A DNA stretch of 64,000 nt from the IMG/VR virus record IMGVR_UViG_3300020371_000002; one strand, 5' to 3'. Shown piece by piece: positions 1 to 11,259 of the stretch. Position 1 is the first letter of the stretch. Each line of letters begins with the position of its first letter. The notes beneath the pieces are model-generated. The model saw only the letters and a program-made list of their open reading frames with translations. It was not told the origin of the DNA and made no database searches. Made by a program: the position numbers and the translations under genes. This DNA comes from a virus. Its lineage: Duplodnaviria > Caudoviricetes.

Positions 1-321
1 AATACCAAGACTATCCAAATTAGGGAATGCAAAGGGATGCCAAATATCTTCACCTTCGCCTTTCCAATTTTCAAAAAGAATACCACCTTTAAAAGTAGAT
101 GTTACCTCACGAAACCATTCTCGGAGTGGAAATCCACAATCATCCATGAATGCTTTAAAACTAAGGATGGTTGCTTCACCAACTCCAACAGGATTACCAC
201 CATCAGTTTTATCGATAAGACTAATAGTAGTATCCTTGGTAATATTATTTAAAAGTAAAGCGGCAGTCATCCATGCGGAAGTGCCACCTCCCACAATGGT
301 AATTCTTTTTGCATCTCTCAT
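1..321 (-). CDS. Flavin-dependent halogenase (tryptophan halogenase, PrnA-like), N-terminal 107 aa; runs off the window edge
   Basis: Hand translation from the ATG at 321: MRDAKRITIVGGGTSAWMTAA...VGVGEAT...TFKGGILFENW...WHPF. This shows the Rossmann GGGxxG FAD motif, the GEAT motif and the catalytic-Lys K-x-G-I-x-F-x-x-W motif of PrnA-type halogenases. The ATG overlaps the upstream stop (ATGA). It is absent from the ORF track because there is no stop in the window. Confidence 0.85.
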   Translation of the reverse strand, partial: MRDAKRITIVGGGTSAWMTAALLLNNITKDTTISLIDKTDGGNPVGVGEATILSFKAFMDDCGFPLREWFREVTSTFKGGILFENWKGEGEDIWHPFAFPNLDSLGI

Positions 322-2168
322 TGATTAGGGACCTCAATCATTAACTTATACTCGGGAAGATATAGATATTCAATATCACTTTCTACAAGAGTTCGAACAG
401 CATCGTGCAAATCTTCTACTAATGGTTCTCCTCCAAGATTGAAAGAGGTATTAAAGATGATTGGGCATCCAGTTTTGTTATAGAACTCAGTAATTAGTTC
501 GTGGTAATGTTTGTTTTGATCTTCAGTAACGGTCTGAATTCTACATGTATCATCAACGTGAATGATGGCAGGAATCTTTTCTTTAATTCCTTCCTGACAC
601 TTGACTGCATACATCATGAAAGGAGTTTCATCCATTCCACGAAGATCGAACCATTCATGAACATGTTCTTTTAGAATAGAACCAGCAAAAGGTCTGAAGT
701 ATTCACGACGTTTTACCGTATTTACAAAGTCCTTTCCATCGGGATCACGAGGGTCATAGACAAGAGAACGATTACCTAATGCACGAGGACCCGCTTCGGA
801 CTTACCCTGCCAGACTGCGACAATATTTTTATCAGTAATTAACTCAACAACATCTGCATCATTAGCTTCAAATACTCTATTCGCACCTGCCTGATCCGCA
901 ATATCGACAATTTCACTACGAGTGTGATTATATTCAAATCCAGTATAAAGGTCGTGAAGAGGACCTTTGATTCTAGTATCGGTTGGATTTAATCTATGAT
1001 GCATCAACATTGCAGCACCAAGTGCAGTACCTGCATCATTACTTACAGGTTCAACAAACAGATTGATACCTTCACCTTCCAATTGTTCAAGATACCAATA
1101 GTTTGCAACACAATTCAATGCATATCCACCCGACAGAACTACGTTCTTCTTACCACTAATCTTTACAGCATATCGAATCAAATCAAGAACCATTGCTTGA
1201 GATTGCGTCTGAATTGCATACGCAAAATCTCTACGATTATCAAGTTCTGTTAGATCATATTGTTTGTTCTGTGCTTTCTCATAGAGTTCGTAATCCGTTC
1301 TAAGGAATGGAAATCTACCCTCATTGACGAACGCGCCGTTGGGGTAATTTGGAGAAATCACATCTCTATTAGTGGTCTTCCAATCAGAAGTACCATTAAC
1401 GTCACCATAGATTGCAGGAATCTTATCATTGGGTTTTCCATATGGGAAAAGACCCATGGTCTTACCAGCCTCAATGGGTTGGAAACCACAGTAAGAAGTT
1501 GCAGCCTCATATGCCTTAACAATACCTGCACTATCATCAAGAACTAACTCGTAAGTAGAACCAGGTTCCCCTTCTTCAGTAGCATCAAACTCAGGGAACC
1601 TATGAGAAATGTATGGTCCTCTACCACCCAAATGTTTATAGAGTGTCTTGAATTCGTGAGGATAACCACAATCAAAGATTGATTCTAATTCCCACACAGT
1701 TTCATTACGACCATTCATATTCATAGGAATGAATGTTCCTGCACCATCAACAATAAGTGCAACAGCATCTTCAAAACCAGAACGGTAGAAGGCACATGCC
1801 GCATGAAGTTTATGGTGGTTTCTACTCAGGTCAATAACCTGGGGATGACCTGGGTGCAGTTCTGCCTTTCTATCGATGAGACCTAATTTTCGGGCAAGAC
1901 CTGTATAAACATCATCCCCAGTGAAATCAATATGTCCAGCAGCACCTGTATGCCCTGGTGTTTCTCTGAGAGGTTGAGTATGTGCAATGACTAGGTAATC
2001 TAATCGATCCGTATACTCTTTAATTTTCATCATGGCAGCAAATGGGCCGCCATCGTATTTCTGTCTAGATAGTCTCTCTTCCTCTACAGAAAAGATAACT
2101 TCCCCATCTTTGAGGAGACAAATACCGCCATTGTGGCCTCTAGTGAGACCTGCAATCCATTGTGCCAT
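318..2168 (-). CDS. O-carbamoyltransferase, NodU/CmcH/TobZ family
   Basis: N-terminal Kae1-like domain (EEERLSRQK, HHKLHA, IVDGAG, GKTMGL, GGYALNCVAN, DAGTALGAA) and C-terminal YrdC-like domain (GPRALGNRS, KRREYFRPFA, NTSFN). Confidence 0.92.
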   Translation of the reverse strand: MAQWIAGLTRGHNGGICLLKDGEVIFSVEEERLSRQKYDGGPFAAMMKIKEYTDRLDYLVIAHTQPLRETPGHTGAAGHIDFTGDDVYTGLARKLGLIDRKAELHPGHPQVIDLSRNHHKLHAACAFYRSGFEDAVALIVDGAGTFIPMNMNGRNETVWELESIFDCGYPHEFKTLYKHLGGRGPYISHRFPEFDATEEGEPGSTYELVLDDSAGIVKAYEAATSYCGFQPIEAGKTMGLFPYGKPNDKIPAIYGDVNGTSDWKTTNRDVISPNYPNGAFVNEGRFPFLRTDYELYEKAQNKQYDLTELDNRRDFAYAIQTQSQAMVLDLIRYAVKISGKKNVVLSGGYALNCVANYWYLEQLEGEGINLFVEPVSNDAGTALGAAMLMHHRLNPTDTRIKGPLHDLYTGFEYNHTRSEIVDIADQAGANRVFEANDADVVELITDKNIVAVWQGKSEAGPRALGNRSLVYDPRDPDGKDFVNTVKRREYFRPFAGSILKEHVHEWFDLRGMDETPFMMYAVKCQEGIKEKIPAIIHVDDTCRIQTVTEDQNKHYHELITEFYNKTGCPIIFNTSFNLGGEPLVEDLHDAVRTLVESDIEYLYLPEYKLMIEVPNQ

Positions 2169-2181
2169 AACAAACTCCTAA

Positions 2182-3312
2182 TTACTTCGAAGACTTGAGA
2201 AGGTTCTCAACTTCGGATTTAAACCCCTTATTTGGTTTTACTGCTGTAGATGGAATTTTCAACTTGGTGGGTTCCATGGTTGAAAACTGTAAATTATTCT
2301 GAACAGGTGTAGGTGCAGCACACTGTTGACCTTCATTCTGTGTCAGTTGTTCTAAACTTGGACCAGTATACTTAACTGATTTGCCAAGTCTCTTTCTCGC
2401 AGAAGTAATAACTTCTCTTACTTGTGCATCAGACATTTCACATGCCTGATCATTATATCTAGTACGTTCTTCATCCATCGTAATTCTGATTGGATCGTAC
2501 TTTCTTCTACCTTCACCAACATCAACAATATCAAAATCCTTGAAGTCTGGATACGAAATGTTAATTGGGAATGTAGAACCAATAACAACAGTTGCTGTTT
2601 TCTTTAATGCTTTTGCGATGTGTTGTCCTACACTATCACAACCAATAAAATGATCAGCACCATCAATAACTCCAGCCCAAATTCGAATGTCTTCGATTTG
2701 TGGACGAGCGACTTTGTGTTTTGCCTTTTCTTCATTTTCTTCAACTGGGAAGTGAATTTCACTCATGATAGCAACAGCATAATCTTTTTTAAGATCATTG
2801 ATGATATCAACTGTATTGACCATGTTCATACTTCGTGAACCAGGATCAACAACAAAATCCCCCACACTGGTAACTCCTCTACCAAAAGGTTGAATAATAA
2901 CAACCTTTTCTTTACCAGTTCCTGCTTTAATTTCTGTAAGAATATTTTGTGCCGTTACAACTTCCATCTTCGAAAGATGGATACTTGGATCTTGCAGTTC
3001 TCTGGGTTCATCAAGCTCATTGATAATGATATCAAAAGCCTGTGCAAGATTACATTTTTGATTATAGTAGTGCCAACATCTGTAGGGTTCTGGACTTACG
3101 AGATCCCTATGAATCAAATGTTCTTCGAATAAATTTTTGTGCCAGGAATCATAACACTTGTTATGAAGAACTGGGTGTCCTTTATAAAAATCTGTGCCCG
3201 CCTCACAAACGATAACAAAATCGTCGTGGGTTTCGGCGTATTTTTCCAATGCTGGGATAGAAGACAGGACTCTTCCTGCTCCACCATTAATAAAGAATGC
3301 TTTAGGTCTCAT
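2182..3312 (-). CDS. GT-B glycosyltransferase, family 9 (heptosyltransferase)-like
   Basis: N-terminal GGAGR resembles the GT9 G-x-G-D motif; VVIIQPFG; C-terminal ADHFIGCDSVGQHIAKAL...VVIGST resembles GT9 ADxxIGNDSGPMHLAAA. Confidence 0.7.
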   Translation of the reverse strand: MRPKAFFINGGAGRVLSSIPALEKYAETHDDFVIVCEAGTDFYKGHPVLHNKCYDSWHKNLFEEHLIHRDLVSPEPYRCWHYYNQKCNLAQAFDIIINELDEPRELQDPSIHLSKMEVVTAQNILTEIKAGTGKEKVVIIQPFGRGVTSVGDFVVDPGSRSMNMVNTVDIINDLKKDYAVAIMSEIHFPVEENEEKAKHKVARPQIEDIRIWAGVIDGADHFIGCDSVGQHIAKALKKTATVVIGSTFPINISYPDFKDFDIVDVGEGRRKYDPIRITMDEERTRYNDQACEMSDAQVREVITSARKRLGKSVKYTGPSLEQLTQNEGQQCAAPTPVQNNLQFSTMEPTKLKIPSTAVKPNKGFKSEVENLLKSSK

Positions 3313-3333
3313 GTCAAAGATTCAATTTGAAAG

Positions 3334-3340
3334 TATTTAG
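3334..3340 (-). promoter_or_regulatory. T4-type late promoter variant CTAAATA upstream of the GT9-like gene
   Basis: Plus-strand tatttag, about 20 nt upstream of the start codon. Confidence 0.6.
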
Positions 3341-3364
3341 GGGTCTTTTCAGACCCCCTTTTTT
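3340..3364. terminator. Stem-loop GGGGTCT/AGACCCC; orientation ambiguous
   Basis: 7-bp stem. The loop reads GAAA on the minus strand, but the T-run lies on the plus-strand 3' side. Confidence 0.45.
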
Positions 3365-3372
3365 ATACTATA

Positions 3373-4242
3373 TCAAAGACCAGGATTCTGATCTTCTGTT
3401 GGTTTTGCACGTTCCATTTGTGCCAAACCTTCTGCAACTGCACGAGCTTCCTTCTCTTTCTTACGAGCTTTAGCTGAGGCAGTCATAGTCTCGTATCTAG
3501 AAGATTCCGAGTCAGGATGGACAGGTGCCATCATAGCAGCGACTGCGGGAGGAATGCCCTGCTCTGTAACCAGAGTAGGCCAATCTCTCAACTTCTGTCT
3601 ATAAGATGTCCAAGTTTCTACCATTGCAGTAGGCATATCGGAAGAAATTTGACCGTCACTGTTGGTCAACATGGTGTTTCTGGTTTCTCTAATATCTTCT
3701 ACACCGAACCAGTCATCATTTGCTTCACCAAGAATAACTTCATTAACGCTCATCATTCTTGCGGTTGGAACACCATCAACAACTCTTACTGAGTCCATAT
3801 CCCAGATAAACTTGGGAAGGATGGGAAGACTGTATTGGAATCTCTCATATCCTTCCAGTGCAGGAGATTGTGGGTGGTTTGCAACAGATCCTGCTGCATC
3901 TCCAGTCTGAGGATTAAGAGTTTCGTTGTCTGGAAGAACTGGACCAGAGAACTCTTGAGATTCGTTGACGATAGGTCCTCTCAGTTGACAGATCAGAGGA
4001 TACTCTGTGCAGTCAACTTCGAAAAATTCTGTGCAATCTGCAGGAAGAGGACGGCCATCAGCCTTATCATCTTCTGTCAGTGGACCATACTTTTCATATC
4101 CATCGGCACCAATTTGAAGATAGATCTTATCGGGTCCGTGATATGTATACTTACGGGACTTAAGTTGTGCCCTATTGTGATCTACCATGTACTCGTCGGG
4201 GAGTGGTAGATCAAATTCTACTTTAATAATTTGTGTTGCCAT
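3373..4242 (-). CDS. Protein with a C-terminal phage tail fibre assembly chaperone-like domain
   Basis: DIRETRNTMLTNSDGQISSDMP...WTSYRQKLRDWP matches the R-x-x-RN-x-LL-x-x-SD...W-x-x-YRQ-x-LRD-x-P chaperone pattern. Confidence 0.7.
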   Translation of the reverse strand: MATQIIKVEFDLPLPDEYMVDHNRAQLKSRKYTYHGPDKIYLQIGADGYEKYGPLTEDDKADGRPLPADCTEFFEVDCTEYPLICQLRGPIVNESQEFSGPVLPDNETLNPQTGDAAGSVANHPQSPALEGYERFQYSLPILPKFIWDMDSVRVVDGVPTARMMSVNEVILGEANDDWFGVEDIRETRNTMLTNSDGQISSDMPTAMVETWTSYRQKLRDWPTLVTEQGIPPAVAAMMAPVHPDSESSRYETMTASAKARKKEKEARAVAEGLAQMERAKPTEDQNPGL

Positions 4243-4297: not shown

Positions 4298-4324
4298 AAA
4301 AAAAGGGGTGGTTTTACCCACCCC
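4298..4324 (-). terminator. Rho-independent terminator after the Cys-rich cassette
   Basis: GGGGTGG/CCACCCC stem followed by a U-run in the minus orientation. Confidence 0.8.
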
Positions 4325-4346: not shown

Positions 4347-5129
4347 TTAGACGTAAGTAATCTTAACGATACCAGTACCACCCGTTCCACCAGTTCCATT
4401 GTCCCAGTTACCGCAATATGTGGTCATACCACCTTGTCCGCCATTTGCGAATGGAACAGTCCAACAACCGCATCTGTTCCAGCATTCGTGTAACTGATAT
4501 TGGACTTCACCACCGATAAATGGAGCAGAGAATGGTTGAGAACCTGTACACTGACAATGGCAGTGATATGCGTGAGAACCAAATTCACCAGCGTGTGCTC
4601 CCATCATGAAGTCAGAACCTTGATCATTAGGTCCTTTACAACATGTAAATACTGAGTTACATGCAGTGTTCCAAGAAGTGTTTGCCTCACCTCTGTGACC
4701 ACCAGTTGCACAGAAATTACTCAAGTTGTATCCATTAACGTAAGAAGCACATCCGTAACACCCTACGCACTCATAAGAACAACAGGGATAAACACCTGCG
4801 GCACAAATGGTATACTGACAACCAGGAGCAGTAGTAATAGTTTTATTTGCATAATATCCACCACCAGCACCTCTGTAGTGATGACAACGGTTCCAGGAAC
4901 AATGCCCGTGTCCGTTTCCACCCGATCCCCAAAGTTCAAATGTGACTCGTCTTACACCGTTGGGTACGGTCCAAAGACAGCAGCATCCACCAGAAGCAGA
5001 CGACATACTTCCGTAGACCCACTGAATATTCCAAGTATTCAGAGCATTAGAGTTGATTTTTGCATCGGTGATTACACCATCGGGAAGTGCTGCACCATCA
5101 ACCTTTTTGTAATCTGTATAATTTGCCAT
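4347..5129 (-). CDS. Cys/Gly-rich protein, paralogue 3 (putative virion or fibre-associated)
   Basis: 260 aa, about 23 Cys by hand count; GCCCLWTVP, WGSGGNG, GGGxY, YPCC, CHC, C-terminal GIVKITY. Confidence 0.75.
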   Translation of the reverse strand: MANYTDYKKVDGAALPDGVITDAKINSNALNTWNIQWVYGSMSSASGGCCCLWTVPNGVRRVTFELWGSGGNGHGHCSWNRCHHYRGAGGGYYANKTITTAPGCQYTICAAGVYPCCSYECVGCYGCASYVNGYNLSNFCATGGHRGEANTSWNTACNSVFTCCKGPNDQGSDFMMGAHAGEFGSHAYHCHCQCTGSQPFSAPFIGGEVQYQLHECWNRCGCWTVPFANGGQGGMTTYCGNWDNGTGGTGGTGIVKITYV

Positions 5130-5152
5130 GGGTGTAAGAATCCTACGTTAAG

Positions 5153-5160
5153 TATTTATC
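5153..5160 (-). promoter_or_regulatory. Late promoter variant GATAAATA
   Basis: Plus-strand tatttatc, overlapping the paralogue 2 stop and upstream of paralogue 3. Confidence 0.55.
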
Positions 5161-5956
5161 AAAAATAAGTGATTTTTACGATACCAGGTCCACCTGTGTT
5201 ACCGTATCCACTATCCCAGTTACCGCAATAACTAGATTGAGCGCCTTGTCCGCCACTAGTATAAGGGACGGTCCAGCAAGCGTGTTTCACCCAACAAACG
5301 TTAACTGCTTGAACTACGTTTGCTCCAACAACAGGGGCTTGAGCTGGTTTTGTTTGCTGTTTGGTGCAGTGGCAGAATCCTGCACCGAACCACCATTCAA
5401 CAGAACCGAATCTACCAGAGTGTCCATTAATACCGAAGTCTCCTCCGTTTGCACCTCTCTGCAAGCAACATTCAAATGTAGAGTAACATGTTTCTGCCCA
5501 TGAGGTGTTTGCACAACCTCTGTCACCACCAATAGCACAGAAACCACTCAGGTTATATCCATTAATATATGATGCACAACCTCTACATCCAGTACAACCC
5601 TGAACGCAGCATGGGAATACTCCACCTGCACATACTGTATACTGACAACCAGCAGTGGTAGTAATCATCTTGGAATTATATTGTCCACCACCTGCACCTT
5701 TAAAGTGCTGGCAACGGTTCCAAGCGCAAGATCCGTGTCCGTTTCCTCCAGAACCCCAAATCTCGAAAAAGATTTTATTTACACCAGAAGGAACTGTCCA
5801 AAGACAGCAACAACCTGATGATAAACTATTGGGTGAACCGTAAACCCATTTAATACCGTAATTCTTTCTCGCACCAGGAACGATCATGTTATCGGTGACG
5901 AATCCGTCTCCGATTTGTTCGGTAGTTACTTTCTTATAACTTGAATACTGTGCCAT
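5159..5956 (-). CDS. Cys/Gly-rich protein, paralogue 2
   Basis: 265 aa, about 22 Cys; same motif order as its neighbours. Confidence 0.75.
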   Translation of the reverse strand: MAQYSSYKKVTTEQIGDGFVTDNMIVPGARKNYGIKWVYGSPNSLSSGCCCLWTVPSGVNKIFFEIWGSGGNGHGSCAWNRCQHFKGAGGGQYNSKMITTTAGCQYTVCAGGVFPCCVQGCTGCRGCASYINGYNLSGFCAIGGDRGCANTSWAETCYSTFECCLQRGANGGDFGINGHSGRFGSVEWWFGAGFCHCTKQQTKPAQAPVVGANVVQAVNVCWVKHACWTVPYTSGGQGAQSSYCGNWDSGYGNTGGPGIVKITYF

Positions 5957-5977
5957 TTTCTTTAAGTTCCCCTGATA

Positions 5978-6760
5978 TTAAACGTAAGTGATCTTGACAA
6001 CGCCAGTACCACCGACCTGACCAGTTCCATTGTCCCAGTTACCACAATATGTAGTCATACCGTTACCACCACCCTGTGCATAAGGTACTGTCCAACATGC
6101 ACAACGTTCCCAACACTCAGCAAGGTGACCACCAATAGTTCCACTCGAAAGGAATGGAGCAGTTCCAGAACACCAAGTGTGTCTGTAACAGTGACATCTA
6201 TGAGGTGCAGTTCCAGCAGGTCTCATATTGGACATGCCGAAGTCCGAACCATTTAGAGTTTGAGATACACAACAGTTCCAATCGGAGTTACACATTGTAC
6301 TCCATGCAGTGTTAGCGCATCCTCTGTTACCACCGTGAGCACAGAATCCACTTAAGTTTGGACCATTGACGTAAGAGGCACATCCTCTACATCCAGTACA
6401 CTCATAAGAACAACAGGGATAAACACCTCCCGCACATACTGTGTATTGACTTCCTGCAGTAACAGAAATAGTCTTAGTAGCATAAAAACCACCGCCACCA
6501 CCGAAGTAGTGATGACAACGGTTCCAGGAACAAAATCCACTACCGTTTCCTCCAGCACCCCATACATCAAAGGTTGCTTTCTTCACCCCAGCAGGTACTG
6601 TCCATAAACAACAGCACCCACCAGAGATACCACCAAGACTTCCACTTACCCAAAGTACGTTATACTTTGGACCCGATCCTGGAGCAAACGCTGAATCAGG
6701 AATCGAGTTGGGTATAATTTGGTCTGCGGTTAATTTCTTGTAACTTCCGTAAGAGGCCAT
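5978..6760 (-). CDS. Cys/Gly-rich protein, paralogue 1
   Basis: 260 aa, about 23 Cys; same motif order as its neighbours. Confidence 0.75.
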   Translation of the reverse strand: MASYGSYKKLTADQIIPNSIPDSAFAPGSGPKYNVLWVSGSLGGISGGCCCLWTVPAGVKKATFDVWGAGGNGSGFCSWNRCHHYFGGGGGFYATKTISVTAGSQYTVCAGGVYPCCSYECTGCRGCASYVNGPNLSGFCAHGGNRGCANTAWSTMCNSDWNCCVSQTLNGSDFGMSNMRPAGTAPHRCHCYRHTWCSGTAPFLSSGTIGGHLAECWERCACWTVPYAQGGGNGMTTYCGNWDNGTGQVGGTGVVKITYV

Positions 6761-6794: not shown

Positions 6795-6824
6795 AGAAAA
6801 GAAAGAGGGGGAAGAATCCCCCTC
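6795..6824 (-). terminator. Terminator-like hairpin after the fibre gene
   Basis: GAGGGGGA/TCCCCCTC stem followed by TTTCTTTTCT in the minus orientation. Confidence 0.7.
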
Positions 6825-6831
6825 CCCAGAA

Positions 6832-9800
6832 TCAGATGGAGAACAGTCTCCAACCGTATGTATCACCTTGGAAGGTGAGTTCGAATGACGCACCCTCTAC
6901 AGAAACTGTCAAGTCAGAGGAGTCACCCATGATTGTCTTGCCGTTACGGGCGACAACCAGGTTGTTTGTATCAAATGTCTTAGCGGCATCGAAGAATCGG
7001 ATCGTATCACCGATCGAAGGAGATGCAGGCAAGGTCATTTGAATCTGACCTGTAGTTGTGTTGACGAAGTACACATGACCCGCAAGTGCGTTACCAGAAG
7101 TAGACTGAGTAACGTACTGCAGTTTACCAGGCTGTGTCCATGCAGTTCCATCGTAGTATTCAAGAGCACCCAGAGTTGTGTTGAATCTGAATGCACCAAT
7201 TACGAAGGAAGGATCAACACCAGATGGTCTTTGTGCGGTAGTACCTACTGGAGGAACCATCGCGCCAACACCCATCTTACCGCGAGTAACAAATCCGCGA
7301 ACCGCGAATTCAGTTGGGCAAGCGGTGTTGGAATCACCAGACATGAATTCATCAGAGGAGAATTCGTTAATTGCCTCACCGACCTGACCACCGATAGCAC
7401 CCAGTCTCAGTTCTGTCAAACCAGACAGGTTGAACGCGGAGGCGTCCAGTGTTGCACGACCAGTCAACTGGTCAACGGAGAAGAACTGACCAACTCTGAA
7501 GTTACCACCTTGGTCGGTAGATACGAAGAATACCTTACCAGGACCAAATGTGTTGGTCTCATTACCCTGAATGATTTGAGTTTCGTCAACATCAGGATAG
7601 TTAGTTTCAGTCTTATTACCAGTACCAACACTCAAGAAGTCGTGACCTGTCAGGCGGACCTGAGAGAACCTAGTTCTAACACTGATGGTAGAACCTGCGC
7701 CCGTGATGTTACGGGTGTCAGGCGTACCCTGACCCTTCTCTGGAGAGATTGTCAGAGTAGCACGGTTATAGTAGGTGTGTGCAAGACCAACAGTGTCAGT
7801 GTAAGTTACCGCAGCAGCGACGTTAGTAACTGTGTTGACAATGTAGAACAGAGAGTCTCCACCGTAAGTAGTAGAGAATCCAATTGCGTCACCTACGAGA
7901 GGAACTTGATCGTATCCATCGATCTCAAGGATTGTACCCTTCTGACCAGAGATGGAAGATGTTGCAGCAGCAACAGTGAAGGAACCACCGTAAGACGCGC
8001 CCGAATCGAATTGGTATGCGTATACAAGTTCACCATCGATGAATGGAGATGTACCAATTGCAACGTTACCGTTAGAAGGAGCTGCAGTCTGACCGTATCC
8101 AGGATGATACTTGAAGTAGAACTTATCAGCAGACTTCTGATCATTGATCAACCATGCCTGAGCGCCAGAGGATTGACCCGAAAGGGTGTTACCAACTGCG
8201 ACAGTACCCGTAACAGTTGTTCCGAGAATGGTCATCAAGTCACCGAACAGTCTTGCTGTTCTTGCAGTTTCTTCAGAGGAGAAACCAGAAGAGATAACAC
8301 CGTAGTCACCGTAAGAGTTGTTACCACCAACAGCACGAATTCTCGCACCGCCACCAGAGTAGTAACCCCACTTAGCGTAGTAGGAGAAGCAGGAGACGAT
8401 CTCAGCGATTGCACTCTTATCAAGGAGGAATCCAGCACCATCAGAGTTAACCTGCGTGAAGGCGTCGAAGACCATCGATTTTGCACCTTCGCTGTGGACA
8501 CCACCGTCAATGAAGACTCCAACACCACCACCACCGAAGCGGCCGTAATCAGTTGCAGGATCAGAGAAGGTTGTGCAGTCCTTAACGTAAGGAGACTTGT
8601 TGTTGATTGGGGAGTTGGGGTTCAGTGCGAAGAACACACCAGCTGCAGTTGTACCAATACCAGTTCTGAGGTTGGTATTGTCCATCTCCAGAGGAGCATT
8701 AGGATCGTAATGGAAACCTTCCATTCCCTTGAATGCCAGTGCCTGAACGGTAGTACCATCAGACAACTTGAACATTGTCGATCTGTTGTTTGGAGTGGTT
8801 CCGTCGTCGGAGTAACCAGCCGCTGGCAGAACCTGAGTACCTCTCAGTGTGTGTCCAACAATCGAAGTGAATGGTGGAACAACAATTGGGAGTTGCTCAT
8901 AGAACTGAGAAGCAGAGAGTCTCAGGATAGCAGGTGTCAGGTCAGTTAACAGACCACCCTGGACATAAGTGTGGTTGATTGTCGAAACACCAACGTTAGT
9001 TCTGAAAGTATCAGCATCAGGAACTTCAAGAACTTCGAAGTAGGACTTAGAAGCCTTATCAGGATAAACGGTAGTTGTAAGACCAACGAATGCAGTACCA
9101 GACTGGACGTAGAGGTAATCAGTTGCAGATTGACCAACGTTCAGAATGACGGAGTTAGCATCGGGGATACCCTGTACAGGGAACTGATACTGACCAGGAG
9201 TGTGGACAGATGGGAAGTTACCTGTGATAGTTGTGTTGCTGGATGCAACGCCGATGTTAACGGTAATAGTTGTTGTAGTCGTTGCAATGATGTTGATCGC
9301 AGTATCATAGTAAGGATCACTGTTACGAGGATATGTGTGGTCGGTGATATAACCGTCCATTGCACAACGGAAGGTCAAACTATCGTTACCGAGTTTGATC
9401 GCTGTGTTTTGTGCGAGTTGGTGAGCACCGATATCCATGACCAGTTCACCAGTAAGGTGATCATAGGTTGCAGCATTTACATCATACTCAACGAGTGGTG
9501 ATGCACCAACGTTAACAGTAAATGTATTCTGAGAGATGGACGAAATGGTAAGAGTTGCACCATTAGCAGGGTCAGTCGCACGAGGATACGTCTTGTTCGC
9601 TGTGTTGTTGTCCATCGAACAGGTGAACGTCATGGAATCTTGATCCAGAGTGATTGTATCACTGATGGACAGTCCATGGTTACCTACGGTGAAGATGATA
9701 TCACCAGATCCAGGAGTGTATTGTGCGTTTGTTGGAGTCAGTTCAGTACCAGCAAGCGAACCGCTAGTTACGTTAATTGCGCCAGTGTCAGCAGCGATGA

Positions 9801-11259
9801 AGGTGTGAGTGTAGTTACCACCTGTCTTAACTGCACCAGATGTTGCAGACTGGAATTGGTGAGCGAATCTTGCATCTCCAGTGTATTGAACTTGAAGATT
9901 TCTAATTCTAACGGTAGCACCGATTCCAACTTCAGGAGCAACACCAAGTCCAATAGCAGTAATTGTTGCAAGACCAACAGTCTTGTTGTACTGCATACCC
10001 AGTACGTTGAAGACATTACCACCAGAGAGACATTCAAACTCAACGCCTTCTAACTGAACAAACGTACCAGTGTTTCTCAGACCATGACCAGGAGCAGTAA
10101 CGGTAGCAACACCAGTTGCAGCAGTGTAGTCGAATCCAGTAATTACAGTTTGTGGACGTGCAGCCTCACAAGCCCTCTTAATTGTTGCGAACGCCAGGTT
10201 AGGTGCAAGACCGTTGTTGCTGTTATGTCCAGACTCAGAGTCAACATAGTAGACTCGGGTTTGAGCACCAACAATCTCGTATCCAGGCATTCCGTTGTCC
10301 TGAACAGCAAGAGCATATCCAGTAGAACCAATACCAATTCTGAAAGGACCAGAGTTATAGGTAAGGATATCACCCTTACTTACCAGAACAGCAGAGCTGT
10401 CTCCAGCAGCAAGAGTTTCCCAATAAGTACCGAGACCTGCAGTAGGAATAACGCCTCTATGGGAGTTACCAACAGAAACATAGGAGTTGGAACCATATCT
10501 TACGACATGACCAGGGTGGTATGCATAAGTTGTAGAGAAGTTACCAACAAAGTTGAAACCTTTAACCAGGAGATCCCAAACAGAGTTACCAATACCAACG
10601 CCCTGCGTATTACCTGCAGAAAGTGGAGCAACGTTAGTAGTGATACCCAACTTGTGACGGAAGATATCTCCACCGTACTGTACAAGTTGACCTCTATAAT
10701 ATGTCGATTCGGAGTAAGTTTGTGCAGCTCCTGCAATACCATCTGCAAGGATCTGCCACTTCTTACCAGCAATATCTGTACCGATAGCAACGTTCTCTGG
10801 AGGAGAGAATCCTGCAAGAGAAGTCGTCAGTGCAACGTAAGAAGAACCGTTAAAGTTAACAACGTCTCCTGATTGATACTCGGAGTTTTGTAACCATTCT
10901 CCTTCTGCCTTAAAGCCTGCGACGTATTCTGTGACCTTTGTCAGGTCAATAAACGTTCCTGCGGAAGTGTGTGCCGTAGTAACTCTATACTGGACGTTAC
11001 CGAATTTAACAACGTCATTAACTTTGTAGTAAACGCCCGCTGCCCAATCGCCTTTCGAAGAAATACCTTCGATGTGAACACTCCACTTTGAGAGATCCGT
11101 AGCGTAGAAGTCTGCGGTACTCGCGGTAGAAGTGTGGTTGGCGATAGCAACATAAGAGTTACCACCAAACTTGATGAGGTCATCAATCAGGTAGGATTTG
11201 GATGGCTGCCATTCGCCAGTCCAGTTGAATTTTACTCTTCCAAGTCTAAACTCAGCCAT
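6832..11259 (-). CDS. Tail fibre / tailspike-like protein, 1475 aa
   Basis: N-terminal W-x-x-x-x-x-Y-x-x-x-D-x-V-x-x-x-G-x-x-Y repeats (CBM5/12-like); VYYVDSESG...AFATIKRA followed by a beta-helix-like region; His/Cys repeat modules; C-terminal TLPASPSIGD...RNG..I.G domain typical of T4-like fibres. Confidence 0.8.
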   Translation of the reverse strand: MAEFRLGRVKFNWTGEWQPSKSYLIDDLIKFGGNSYVAIANHTSTASTADFYATDLSKWSVHIEGISSKGDWAAGVYYKVNDVVKFGNVQYRVTTAHTSAGTFIDLTKVTEYVAGFKAEGEWLQNSEYQSGDVVNFNGSSYVALTTSLAGFSPPENVAIGTDIAGKKWQILADGIAGAAQTYSESTYYRGQLVQYGGDIFRHKLGITTNVAPLSAGNTQGVGIGNSVWDLLVKGFNFVGNFSTTYAYHPGHVVRYGSNSYVSVGNSHRGVIPTAGLGTYWETLAAGDSSAVLVSKGDILTYNSGPFRIGIGSTGYALAVQDNGMPGYEIVGAQTRVYYVDSESGHNSNNGLAPNLAFATIKRACEAARPQTVITGFDYTAATGVATVTAPGHGLRNTGTFVQLEGVEFECLSGGNVFNVLGMQYNKTVGLATITAIGLGVAPEVGIGATVRIRNLQVQYTGDARFAHQFQSATSGAVKTGGNYTHTFIAADTGAINVTSGSLAGTELTPTNAQYTPGSGDIIFTVGNHGLSISDTITLDQDSMTFTCSMDNNTANKTYPRATDPANGATLTISSISQNTFTVNVGASPLVEYDVNAATYDHLTGELVMDIGAHQLAQNTAIKLGNDSLTFRCAMDGYITDHTYPRNSDPYYDTAINIIATTTTTITVNIGVASSNTTITGNFPSVHTPGQYQFPVQGIPDANSVILNVGQSATDYLYVQSGTAFVGLTTTVYPDKASKSYFEVLEVPDADTFRTNVGVSTINHTYVQGGLLTDLTPAILRLSASQFYEQLPIVVPPFTSIVGHTLRGTQVLPAAGYSDDGTTPNNRSTMFKLSDGTTVQALAFKGMEGFHYDPNAPLEMDNTNLRTGIGTTAAGVFFALNPNSPINNKSPYVKDCTTFSDPATDYGRFGGGGVGVFIDGGVHSEGAKSMVFDAFTQVNSDGAGFLLDKSAIAEIVSCFSYYAKWGYYSGGGARIRAVGGNNSYGDYGVISSGFSSEETARTARLFGDLMTILGTTVTGTVAVGNTLSGQSSGAQAWLINDQKSADKFYFKYHPGYGQTAAPSNGNVAIGTSPFIDGELVYAYQFDSGASYGGSFTVAAATSSISGQKGTILEIDGYDQVPLVGDAIGFSTTYGGDSLFYIVNTVTNVAAAVTYTDTVGLAHTYYNRATLTISPEKGQGTPDTRNITGAGSTISVRTRFSQVRLTGHDFLSVGTGNKTETNYPDVDETQIIQGNETNTFGPGKVFFVSTDQGGNFRVGQFFSVDQLTGRATLDASAFNLSGLTELRLGAIGGQVGEAINEFSSDEFMSGDSNTACPTEFAVRGFVTRGKMGVGAMVPPVGTTAQRPSGVDPSFVIGAFRFNTTLGALEYYDGTAWTQPGKLQYVTQSTSGNALAGHVYFVNTTTGQIQMTLPASPSIGDTIRFFDAAKTFDTNNLVVARNGKTIMGDSSDLTVSVEGASFELTFQGDTYGWRLFSI

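Follow-up and report, generated by a model that had tools for sequence, protein, structure and literature searches.

A predicted heptosylation and carbamoylation operon, headed by a GT9-fold glycosyltransferase, in the structural region of a T4-like cyanomyovirus

Clusters of lipopolysaccharide (LPS) genes were noted in the cyanophage P-SSM2 (2005) and later in S-SSM7 and S-SM2 (2010), and their function was left open (Sullivan et al.; PMC3037559). In 2010, Sullivan and colleagues raised the idea that the LPS-type cluster might be 'stuffer DNA', and listed carbamoyltransferase and prnA among the sporadic host-like genes. In the LPS core of Pseudomonas, WapO makes 7-O-carbamoyl-heptose (PMC8005017). 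Here we analyse a locus at the start of a 64,000-nt stretch of viral DNA (IMG/VR record IMGVR_UViG_3300020371_000002; the whole stretch is called the window), where genes for a glycosyltransferase (GT), a carbamoyltransferase (CT) and a halogenase follow one another. The cassette to which these genes belong is already catalogued in cyanophages; it is real and coherent, and is by its predicted chemistry a phage GT9-like heptosylation and carbamoylation system.

The ten-gene operon and its predicted heptose pathway

Across the entire window, transcription is on the minus strand; the stretch represents the structural region of a T4-like cyanomyovirus of the family Kyanoviridae. The genes at its start are arranged as follows.

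3312..2182, minus strand: GT9-fold glycosyltransferase (GT), 376 amino acids (aa); assigned by AlphaFold, Foldseek and VIA; orthologue of T4-GC 302
2169..2181, minus strand: 13-nt spacer between GT and CT, coding strand TTAGGAGTTTGTT, including an AGGAG ribosome-binding site
2168..318, minus strand: NodU/TobZ-family O-carbamoyltransferase (CT), 616 aa; assigned by Pfam; GT-linked orthogroup of T4-GC 303
318-321, minus strand: ATGA, overlap of the CT stop with the halogenase start, read from the sequence
321..1, minus strand: flavin-dependent halogenase, first 107 codons of 505 aa, cut by the window edge; Trp_halogenase domain

These three genes, with their spacer and overlap, agree with the original prediction, which had taken them for a unit of three tailoring genes. 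They are the head of a ten-gene operon, and the seven downstream genes that define its chemistry had been missed. The latter were read from a 149-kb IMG/VR record (G001; 69% complete) that is 100% identical to window bases 1-3400. There, CT is followed by the halogenase, two DUF6445 genes, a nucleotidyltransferase, a kinase, a HAD phosphatase, a cupin and a 2-oxoglutarate (2OG)-Fe(II) oxygenase. A strong terminator with a 12-bp stem and a T7 tail stands right after the tenth gene, and a gene for a short-chain dehydrogenase/reductase (SDR) epimerase (7e-24) converges on the operon. Further on in the same record lie the neck genes gp13/14, gp15 and the terminase genes. Three of the pathway genes were located in locus L004.

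L004 10148-10483 (3888-4223 bases before the window start): HAD-type phosphatase, 111 aa; Atlas neighbours are HAD phosphatases
L004 9802-10179 (4192-4569 bases before the window start): cupin, 125 aa; Atlas neighbours are of the mannose-6-phosphate and lyxose isomerase families
L004 8412-9257, plus strand: SDR epimerase; start probably the ATG at L004 8452, MILLTGYKGFIGSH

The CTP_transf_like protein of the operon matches rfaE domain II (8.3e-32) and the PfkB kinase matches rfaE domain I (2.2e-39); on these matches, the two genes are a split HldE. The Atlas neighbours of the cupin and of the 111-aa protein are feature-based and are to be read as leads only. Two public labels appear to be wrong: the 'phosphoheptose isomerase' of T4-GC 306 appears to be this 111-aa HAD-type phosphatase, and the 'nucleotidyltransferase/cysteine dioxygenase' of T4-GC 307 appears to be the cupin. 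No SIS-type GmhA was found in the operon, and a search of the DUF6445 proteins against the PDB gave no match. Taken together, the operon enzymes and the epimerase would constitute a complete route from sedoheptulose-7-phosphate to a nucleoside diphosphate (NDP)-heptose that dispenses with a SIS-type GmhA. Regarding the epimerase, a start at 8452 gives the Rossmann motif GxxGxxG, the TTG chosen by the open reading frame (ORF) finder lying further upstream; the gene diverges from a 274-aa gene whose own CATAAATA is on the opposite strand of the same stretch.

The mechanism that we propose begins with this route. The cupin may act as an isomerase replacing GmhA, and the PfkB kinase, the small HAD phosphatase, the nucleotidyltransferase of HldE-domain-II type and the convergent SDR epimerase would complete the synthesis of the nucleotide-activated heptose. 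The GT9-fold enzyme would then move the heptose onto an acceptor, and the adjacent NodU/TobZ-type CT would O-carbamoylate it, as the WapO precedent suggests. In the present lineage, the inserted flavin halogenase and the Fe/2OG-type oxygenases would add further modifications that are not universal. The donor, the order of these steps and their late timing are predicted, and the acceptor, discussed below, is the part of which we are least sure. The proposal made from the three genes, that they encode a sugar-tailoring pathway with a late-type promoter and belong to the fibre/neck module, is supported.

The glycosyltransferase, the carbamoyltransferase and the halogenase

GT is composed of a GT-B fold (residues 1-312) and a basic tail modelled with low confidence (residues 313-376). 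Its orthologues are annotated 'hypothetical protein' in 24 of 24 phage records. A Pfam search gave no match to GT, PF01075 included; the score against the NCBIfam heptosyltransferase III model was 20 bits for a cut-off of 170, and the distant relatives gave only 'weak' PF01075 matches. Searched against the PDB, the single sequence had no match and the profile reached an E-value of about 0.3. The structural model, by contrast, was informative. AlphaFold, given an alignment of 54 diverse sequences, returned a model with a pLDDT of 90.7, and the top 30 PDB matches of this model in Foldseek were all GT9 heptosyltransferases (TibC, 3tov, WaaC, WaaF), TibC being first. VIA alignments gave Z-scores of 23.2 for 3tov, 21.1 for WaaF, 19.6 for TibC and 18.7 for WaaC, compared to 11.9 at most for other GT-B folds. 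Alignment of the donor domain with hhalign found WaaF (E 7e-5) and WaaC (E 3e-4). The modelled structure thus identifies GT as a GT9-fold enzyme: the 'GT9-like' assignment made beforehand holds for the fold and finds no counterpart in Pfam. Since the operon encodes its own NDP-heptose pathway, heptose would be the logical donor.

The donor-side residues are conserved. R160 and D226-S-V-G-Q-H231 align with Lys192 and Asp261-Thr-Gly-x-x-His266 of WaaC; across the 54 sequences, D226 and H231 do not vary, and R160 reaches at least 90% conservation. The β1-α1 loop reads G10-G11-x-G13-R14 (GGAGR14) where WaaC has G-D13, and the Arg is near-invariant. The equivalence of Arg14 with Asp13 of WaaC was drawn from the position in the loop and from a local alignment that is itself insignificant. 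On this equivalence the catalytic Asp is replaced by Arg, and the chemistry or the acceptor of GT may therefore differ. Both Rossmann domains are acidic, with a median isoelectric point of about 6 for the N-domain and about 5 for the other. WaaC and WaaF have basic N-domains.

These properties bear on the possibility that the phage DNA is hypermodified, heptose and then carbamoyl being placed on a modified base. A parallel exists: phage clusters with HAD or kinase, cytidylyltransferase and GT-B genes put one or two heptoses on 5-hydroxymethylcytosine (5hmC), and so combine, like the present operon, heptose activation by the phage with a GT-B transferase (bioRxiv 10.1101/2023.12.21.572611). Those clusters differ in that they use a T4 β-GT-like enzyme and 5hmC made by methyltransferase and TET enzymes, neither of which is found in the present phage: GT is GT9-like, and no gene for a C5-methyltransferase or a TET-like enzyme was found in the 149-kb record, 69% complete as noted. 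Furthermore, both GT domains are acidic, whereas the 5hmC-heptose enzyme has a positively charged DNA groove (same preprint). DNA as the target is, in our view, highly improbable, in agreement with what had been proposed at the outset. To these arguments may be added another: cyanomyoviruses are not known to have dCMP hydroxymethylase.

The GT tail is variable (25-80 residues) and basic, with short conserved CC and KGF/LLKxxK motifs. One possible role for this tail (window 2182-2373) is that of a docking peptide, another that of an amphipathic helix binding to membranes. It is absent from four distant relatives of 304-314 aa which, in the neighbourhoods examined, have no adjacent carbamoyltransferase. 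The CC motif is variable and cannot be taken as a sign of an iron finger of the TibC type.

CT is recognised by Pfam through both of its domains (Carbam_trans_C, PF16861, 5.6e-59, 199 bits; Carbam_trans_N, PF02543, 1.6e-28, 100 bits). In the PDB it matches 7xb6 (4.7e-52), followed by GdmN, the novobiocin carbamoyltransferase and TobZ (6e-43). Its HHKLH..DG motif aligns with that of 7xb6, and H118, H119, H122 and D141, which form the metal motif HHxxH..D, are invariant in 19 orthologues. By analogy with WapO, and because it always stands beside GT, CT probably O-carbamoylates a sugar hydroxyl. A prediction of the GT-CT complex from paired 19-row alignments had a median score of 0.07 against a mark of 0.32, which is evidence neither for nor against an interaction.

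The halogenase matches Trp_halogenase with 8.5e-23 over the 107 codons of the window and with 4.4e-88 over the 505-aa protein of the 149-kb record. Its motifs are intact: GGGTSAW, K78 (aligned to K79 of PrnA), GWIWKIP and FIEPLESTG. PrnA is the best PDB match (8e-63), and the cyanophage enzyme VirX1 is found with 9e-45. The alignment with PrnA ends at residue 411 of 505, leaving unaligned a C-terminal substrate module of about 90 residues.

The relatives of CT and of the halogenase raise the question of a small-molecule product, i.e. that the cluster acts on a host metabolite or peptide by adding sugar, carbamoyl, hydroxyl and halogen groups, the product being for example a toxin, a signal or an antagonist of competing phages or of grazers. 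For CT, the closest solved relatives are natural-product enzymes (GdmN, the novobiocin carbamoyltransferase, TobZ), as they are for the halogenase (PrnA, RebH); the operon encodes several oxygenases, and VirX1 is reported to take diverse small molecules (reference 114 in PMC10452541). The operon, however, contains no scaffold-forming enzyme, and the halogenase and oxygenases are its variable part, the stable core being the GT-CT-heptose set. We therefore regard a small-molecule product as unlikely. We know of no GT9 enzyme from a small-molecule pathway.

Conservation of the GT-CT pair

Synteny was counted over about 100 IMG/VR loci that belong to one clade, so that the counts are not independent of each other. 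CT was found at most 2.1 kb downstream of GT at 64 of 64 loci, and adjacent to it (<200 nt) at 54 of the 64. Among cultured phages, GT is present in 11 phage types; the best CT match is immediately downstream in 11/11, and the two orthogroups correspond one to one. Carbamoyltransferases that occur without GT are below 40% identity. Heptose genes lie within 10 kb of GT at 35 of 47 loci (74%), the halogenase at 29 of 47 (62%). The latter is missing from S-CAM1 and S-CAM3 and, in P-SSM2, stands at a distance of 60 kb; among cyanophages without the GT-CT pair it is common. In S-SSM7, S-CAM1 and P-SSM2, which represent three genera, the order GC302-303-304-305-306-307 is kept between fibre and neck genes, with the epimerase on the opposite strand.

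Because the halogenase is variable and is found without the pair, these comparisons indicate that the stable nucleus is GT plus CT, usually with heptose genes, and that the halogenase and the DUF6445 genes are lineage-specific inserts. The trio formerly seen in GT, CT and the halogenase thus resolves into an inseparable pair and an accessory gene. The halogenase was found only where Gly-rich paralogues are present (22/30 versus 0/6; Fisher p = 0.0015), an association that we do not count as functional evidence because the loci are phylogenetically related. In S-SSM7 (103587-108997; L003), a second, 'Nol' carbamoyltransferase-like gene and denV lie between CT and the halogenase, which shows that the operon does take up unrelated genes.

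More than 4,000 relatives of GT were found in metagenomes, mostly unannotated, a few being labelled ADP-heptose:LPS heptosyltransferase; an exhaustive search yielded 382 cluster representatives. In 185,579 species genomes the family was found only on contigs of metagenome-assembled genomes (MAGs) with mutually inconsistent taxonomy, which are probably mis-binned phage DNA. These contigs (L114-L128), mostly short, were assigned to Actinomycetota, Methanobacteriota, Flavobacteriales, Neomarinimicrobiota, Woesearchaeota and others. The GT family therefore looks phage-only. Its distant members (29-31% identity) include one in Aeromonas phage HJ05, located between tail fibre and sheath genes with no pathway genes in the 17 kb examined, so that its host would supply the heptose. 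In a T4-like contig, another is flanked by gp15 and gp16; a third lies beside a Collar-domain protein together with SIS, HAD and epimerase heptose genes.

Late-type motif, candidate acceptors and comparison with known systems

Two elements precede GT.

3340..3334, minus strand: CTAAATA (octamer CCTAAATA), a motif resembling T4-type late promoters, 22 nt ahead of the GT ATG
3340..3357, minus strand: GC-rich hairpin, coding strand GGGGTCTGAAAAGACCCC, after the chaperone-like gene and abutting CTAAATA

The T4-type late promoter octamer, which gp55/gp33 use, is TATAAATA and the cyanomyovirus consensus is NATAAATA (PMC2984593), from which CCTAAATA differs by one mismatch. As a word, CTAAATA is not enriched in the window (6 found versus 11.4 expected). 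Its distribution is nevertheless skewed: six of six copies are on the coding strand, and the TAAATA core occurs 30 times on the coding (minus) strand versus 3 times on the other. The intergenic TAAATA copies, mostly TATAAATA, stand 22-44 nt ahead of the start codons of structural genes. Of 60 distinct regions upstream of the GT orthologue, 37 had TAAATA within 70 nt before its start, including cases in which a different gene precedes; 19 of the 37 are of the CTAAATA type and 13 are GATAAATA. The late-type motif that had been noticed ahead of GT is thus confirmed at its position and conserved in relatives. Strand bias, position and conservation are what speak for it, and they suggest that the operon would be expressed late. 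Marine RNA libraries (two runs of one sample) and one 'viral' RNA library yielded short pieces of all three genes; strand, ends and timing are not readable from such metatranscriptome contigs, and DNA carry-over is possible. As for the hairpin, its T-run is on the non-coding strand, the coding strand showing a stem-loop preceded by an A-tract, while the other inter-gene terminators of the window (4324..4305 and 6827..6802) have the usual orientation. The closest relatives (L005-L009 and L059) have the hairpin and the motif arranged in the same way.

Upstream of these elements are the fibre-side genes.

3373..4242, minus strand: tail-assembly-chaperone-domain protein (Phage_tail_APC), 289 aa; Pfam; directly upstream of GT
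4347..6760, minus strand: three Cys/Gly-rich Gly_rich_2 paralogues, 260-265 aa; Pfam; candidate acceptors
6832..11259, minus strand: fibre-like protein, 1475 aa; S-SSM7 orthologue annotated 'phage tail fiber-like protein'

ORFs and Pfam matches here agree with the fibre, Cys-rich and chaperone genes recognised earlier. Nine Trp residues are invariant across the Gly_rich_2 paralogues of the window. A chaperone-like homologue lies upstream of GT at 55 of 64 loci and Gly-rich paralogues at 52 of 64. A BLAST search for a single conserved acceptor showed that, among cultured phages, the Gly-rich and chaperone-like proteins of the window match only the S-SSM7 lineage. Proteins with about 10% Cys were also found upstream of the cassette in S-CAM1 and P-SSM2, by composition and Pfam because they are too diverged for BLAST, so that Cys/Gly-rich proteins are upstream in the four lineages examined (S-SSM7, S-CAM1, P-SSM2 and the present phage). 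In the same four lineages the cassette stands behind a late-type motif in the fibre/neck module.

In several cyanomyoviruses without GT, fibre-side Gly_rich_2 proteins (about 10% Cys) are again followed by tailoring enzymes. In Syn9 (NC_008296.2 30343-36070), two halogenases and several 2OG oxygenases come after gp38-39; P-RSM4 (NC_015283.1 33541-36897), S-CAM8 (NC_021530.1 30348-33707) and S-SSM5 (NC_015289.1 31400-34759) have, after Gly_rich_2, a carbamoyltransferase that is convergent and a 2OG oxygenase. This pattern, seen across many Kyanoviridae, could fit a virion-modification toolkit or an insertion hot-spot.

Which molecule would receive the carbamoyl-heptose? Cyanobacterial LPS contains neither heptose nor 3-deoxy-D-manno-octulosonate (Kdo) (PMC4390846). 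It is therefore the phage that has to bring the sugar, and a GT9 enzyme lacks its classical acceptor there. The conserved late-type motif, the Cys/Gly-rich proteins upstream, the location of some distant GT members by tail genes, the apparent restriction of the family to phages and the acidic N-domain point to a virion target. We tentatively propose that the acceptor is a co-expressed virion protein, either the upstream Cys/Gly-rich fibre-associated proteins or the fibre itself, a proposal that we hold to be the likeliest single one and still somewhat less probable than not.

Several observations weigh against this proposal. Heptose transfer, carbamoylation and timing are predicted only, the catalytic Asp13 of WaaC appears to be replaced by Arg14 in GT, and the synteny counts come from a single clade. 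Gly_rich_2 proteins also occur in cyanophages that lack GT, and other distant members of the GT family belong to a replication module, or to sugar clusters that also hold genes for GT25 and UDP-glucose dehydrogenase. GT is structurally slightly closer to GT9 enzymes of the LPS type (Z 23.2 and 21.1) than to TibC (19.6). Finally, the fibre-side position is weak evidence, because the structural module contains hypervariable stretches, as known for the g15-g18 region of cyanomyoviruses (PMC2984593), and the fibre-side islands carry unrelated genes as well, among them denV, ferrochelatase and TPR genes.

Some of these observations would suit a target in the host envelope, the carbamoyl-heptose being added to host LPS, to a lipid-linked glycan or to another surface glycan for superinfection exclusion, for protection from grazing, or to keep progeny from adsorbing again to debris. 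GT9 enzymes are LPS enzymes, a type to which the best structural matches of GT belong; the literature reads these loci as LPS genes (Sullivan 2005/2010, Clokie 2010); S-SSM7 and P-SSM2 hold many more LPS-type genes; the company of GT25 and UDP-glucose dehydrogenase genes around some distant members is of the same kind; and the basic GT tail, with its amphipathic KGF...LLKxxK end, could anchor the enzyme to a membrane. On the other hand, the canonical acceptor is absent from hosts whose LPS has no Kdo or heptose, the GT acceptor domain is acidic and apparently without the catalytic Asp, and bacterial genomes appear to lack the GT family. A late-type promoter in the structural module would, moreover, leave little time for envelope turnover. 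Host-envelope remodelling is in our judgement possible and somewhat doubtful, and the classical LPS core is an unlikely acceptor.

The same variability of the structural module raises the question of whether the cassette has any coordinated role. It could be cargo of an insertion hot-spot, accidentally linked to the fibre and with some genes perhaps decaying as 'stuffer', an idea that goes back to Sullivan 2010 and finds support in the unrelated genes of the islands and in the documented hyperplastic regions of the structural module (PMC2984593). Ten of ten frames are intact, however, the gene junctions are coupled and the catalytic motifs are conserved. GT and CT orthologues keep 52-89% identity over about 100 loci and have thousands of relatives in metagenomes, and the predicted pathway is biochemically complete. 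Cargo of this kind is, in our opinion, a very unlikely explanation.

If the virion is the target, a broader and more speculative picture can be drawn, which we think has a limited chance of being correct as a whole. Abundant marine cyanomyoviruses would modify the apparatus with which they bind receptors: a phage-only, Asp-less GT9 clade would O-heptosylate the Cys/Gly-rich fibre-tip proteins, carbamoylation of the sugar would follow, and in some lineages the neighbouring flavin halogenase and Fe/2OG enzymes would halogenate Trp residues or hydroxylate side chains. The tailoring island would then be a toolkit for post-translational modification of the virion, which would tune host range or confer resistance to proteases or grazers.

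T4-like cyanophages are among the most abundant viruses of the ocean and, with its more than 4,000 metagenomic relatives, GT would make a modification that is ecologically widespread. For twenty years the cassette has been called 'LPS genes' without a function; the GT9 fold of its first gene, the locked association with CT, the delivery of heptose into heptose-less hosts and the missing acceptor and Asp make this label testable. A virion target would represent the first heptose-based phage glycosylation and would give a natural context to orphan viral halogenases such as VirX1. A target in the host envelope would be a direct way for phages to rewrite cyanobacterial surfaces.

The motifs of flavin-dependent halogenases such as PrnA, RebH and VirX1 (PDB 6qgm) are all intact in our enzyme, as GxGxxG, Lys78, WxWxIP and the Glu of EPLESTG; its identity to phage halogenases of the Syn9/Syn10 type is only about 30%. 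The autotransporter heptosyltransferases TibC and AAH have a GT9-type fold in common with GT (Z 19.6 over 266 aligned residues) and use ADP-heptose to modify a protein substrate whose gene is adjacent. The alignment covers TibC residues 92-393 only, the N-terminal extension of TibC being absent from GT.

The Pseudomonas enzymes WaaC/WaaF and WapO (PMC8005017) resemble the present system in several respects, namely the GT9 fold, the donor motif D-x-G-x-x-H, a basic residue equivalent to Lys192, a NodU-family carbamoyltransferase in the same locus and an ADP-heptose pathway alongside. Unlike WaaC/WaaF, GT has no PF01075 match, has Arg in place of the N-terminal Asp, has an acidic acceptor domain, looks restricted to phages and follows a late-type motif; besides, the acceptor of WaaC/WaaF (Kdo/heptose core) does not occur in cyanobacterial hosts.

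The closest system is the cyanophage 'LPS gene cluster' T4-GC 302-308 of P-SSM2, S-SSM7 and S-CAM1 (PMC3037559). In the papers searched, we did not find GC302 described as a GT9 fold with an Asp-to-Arg change, the coupling of the GT and CT orthogroups, GC306 and GC307 described as phosphatase and cupin, or the limits of the operon. In order, the cluster holds GC302, still annotated as hypothetical, the carbamoyltransferase gene GC303, genes for a nucleotidyltransferase and a kinase, the so-called 'phosphoheptose isomerase', a cupin gene and an epimerase on the opposite strand. The present lineage and S-SSM7 have a halogenase inserted after CT, accompanied by two DUF6445 genes in the present phage and not in S-SSM7. 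The genes, their order and their site between fibre and neck are otherwise the same, with identities to the present phage of 47-61% for GT and 44-70% for CT.

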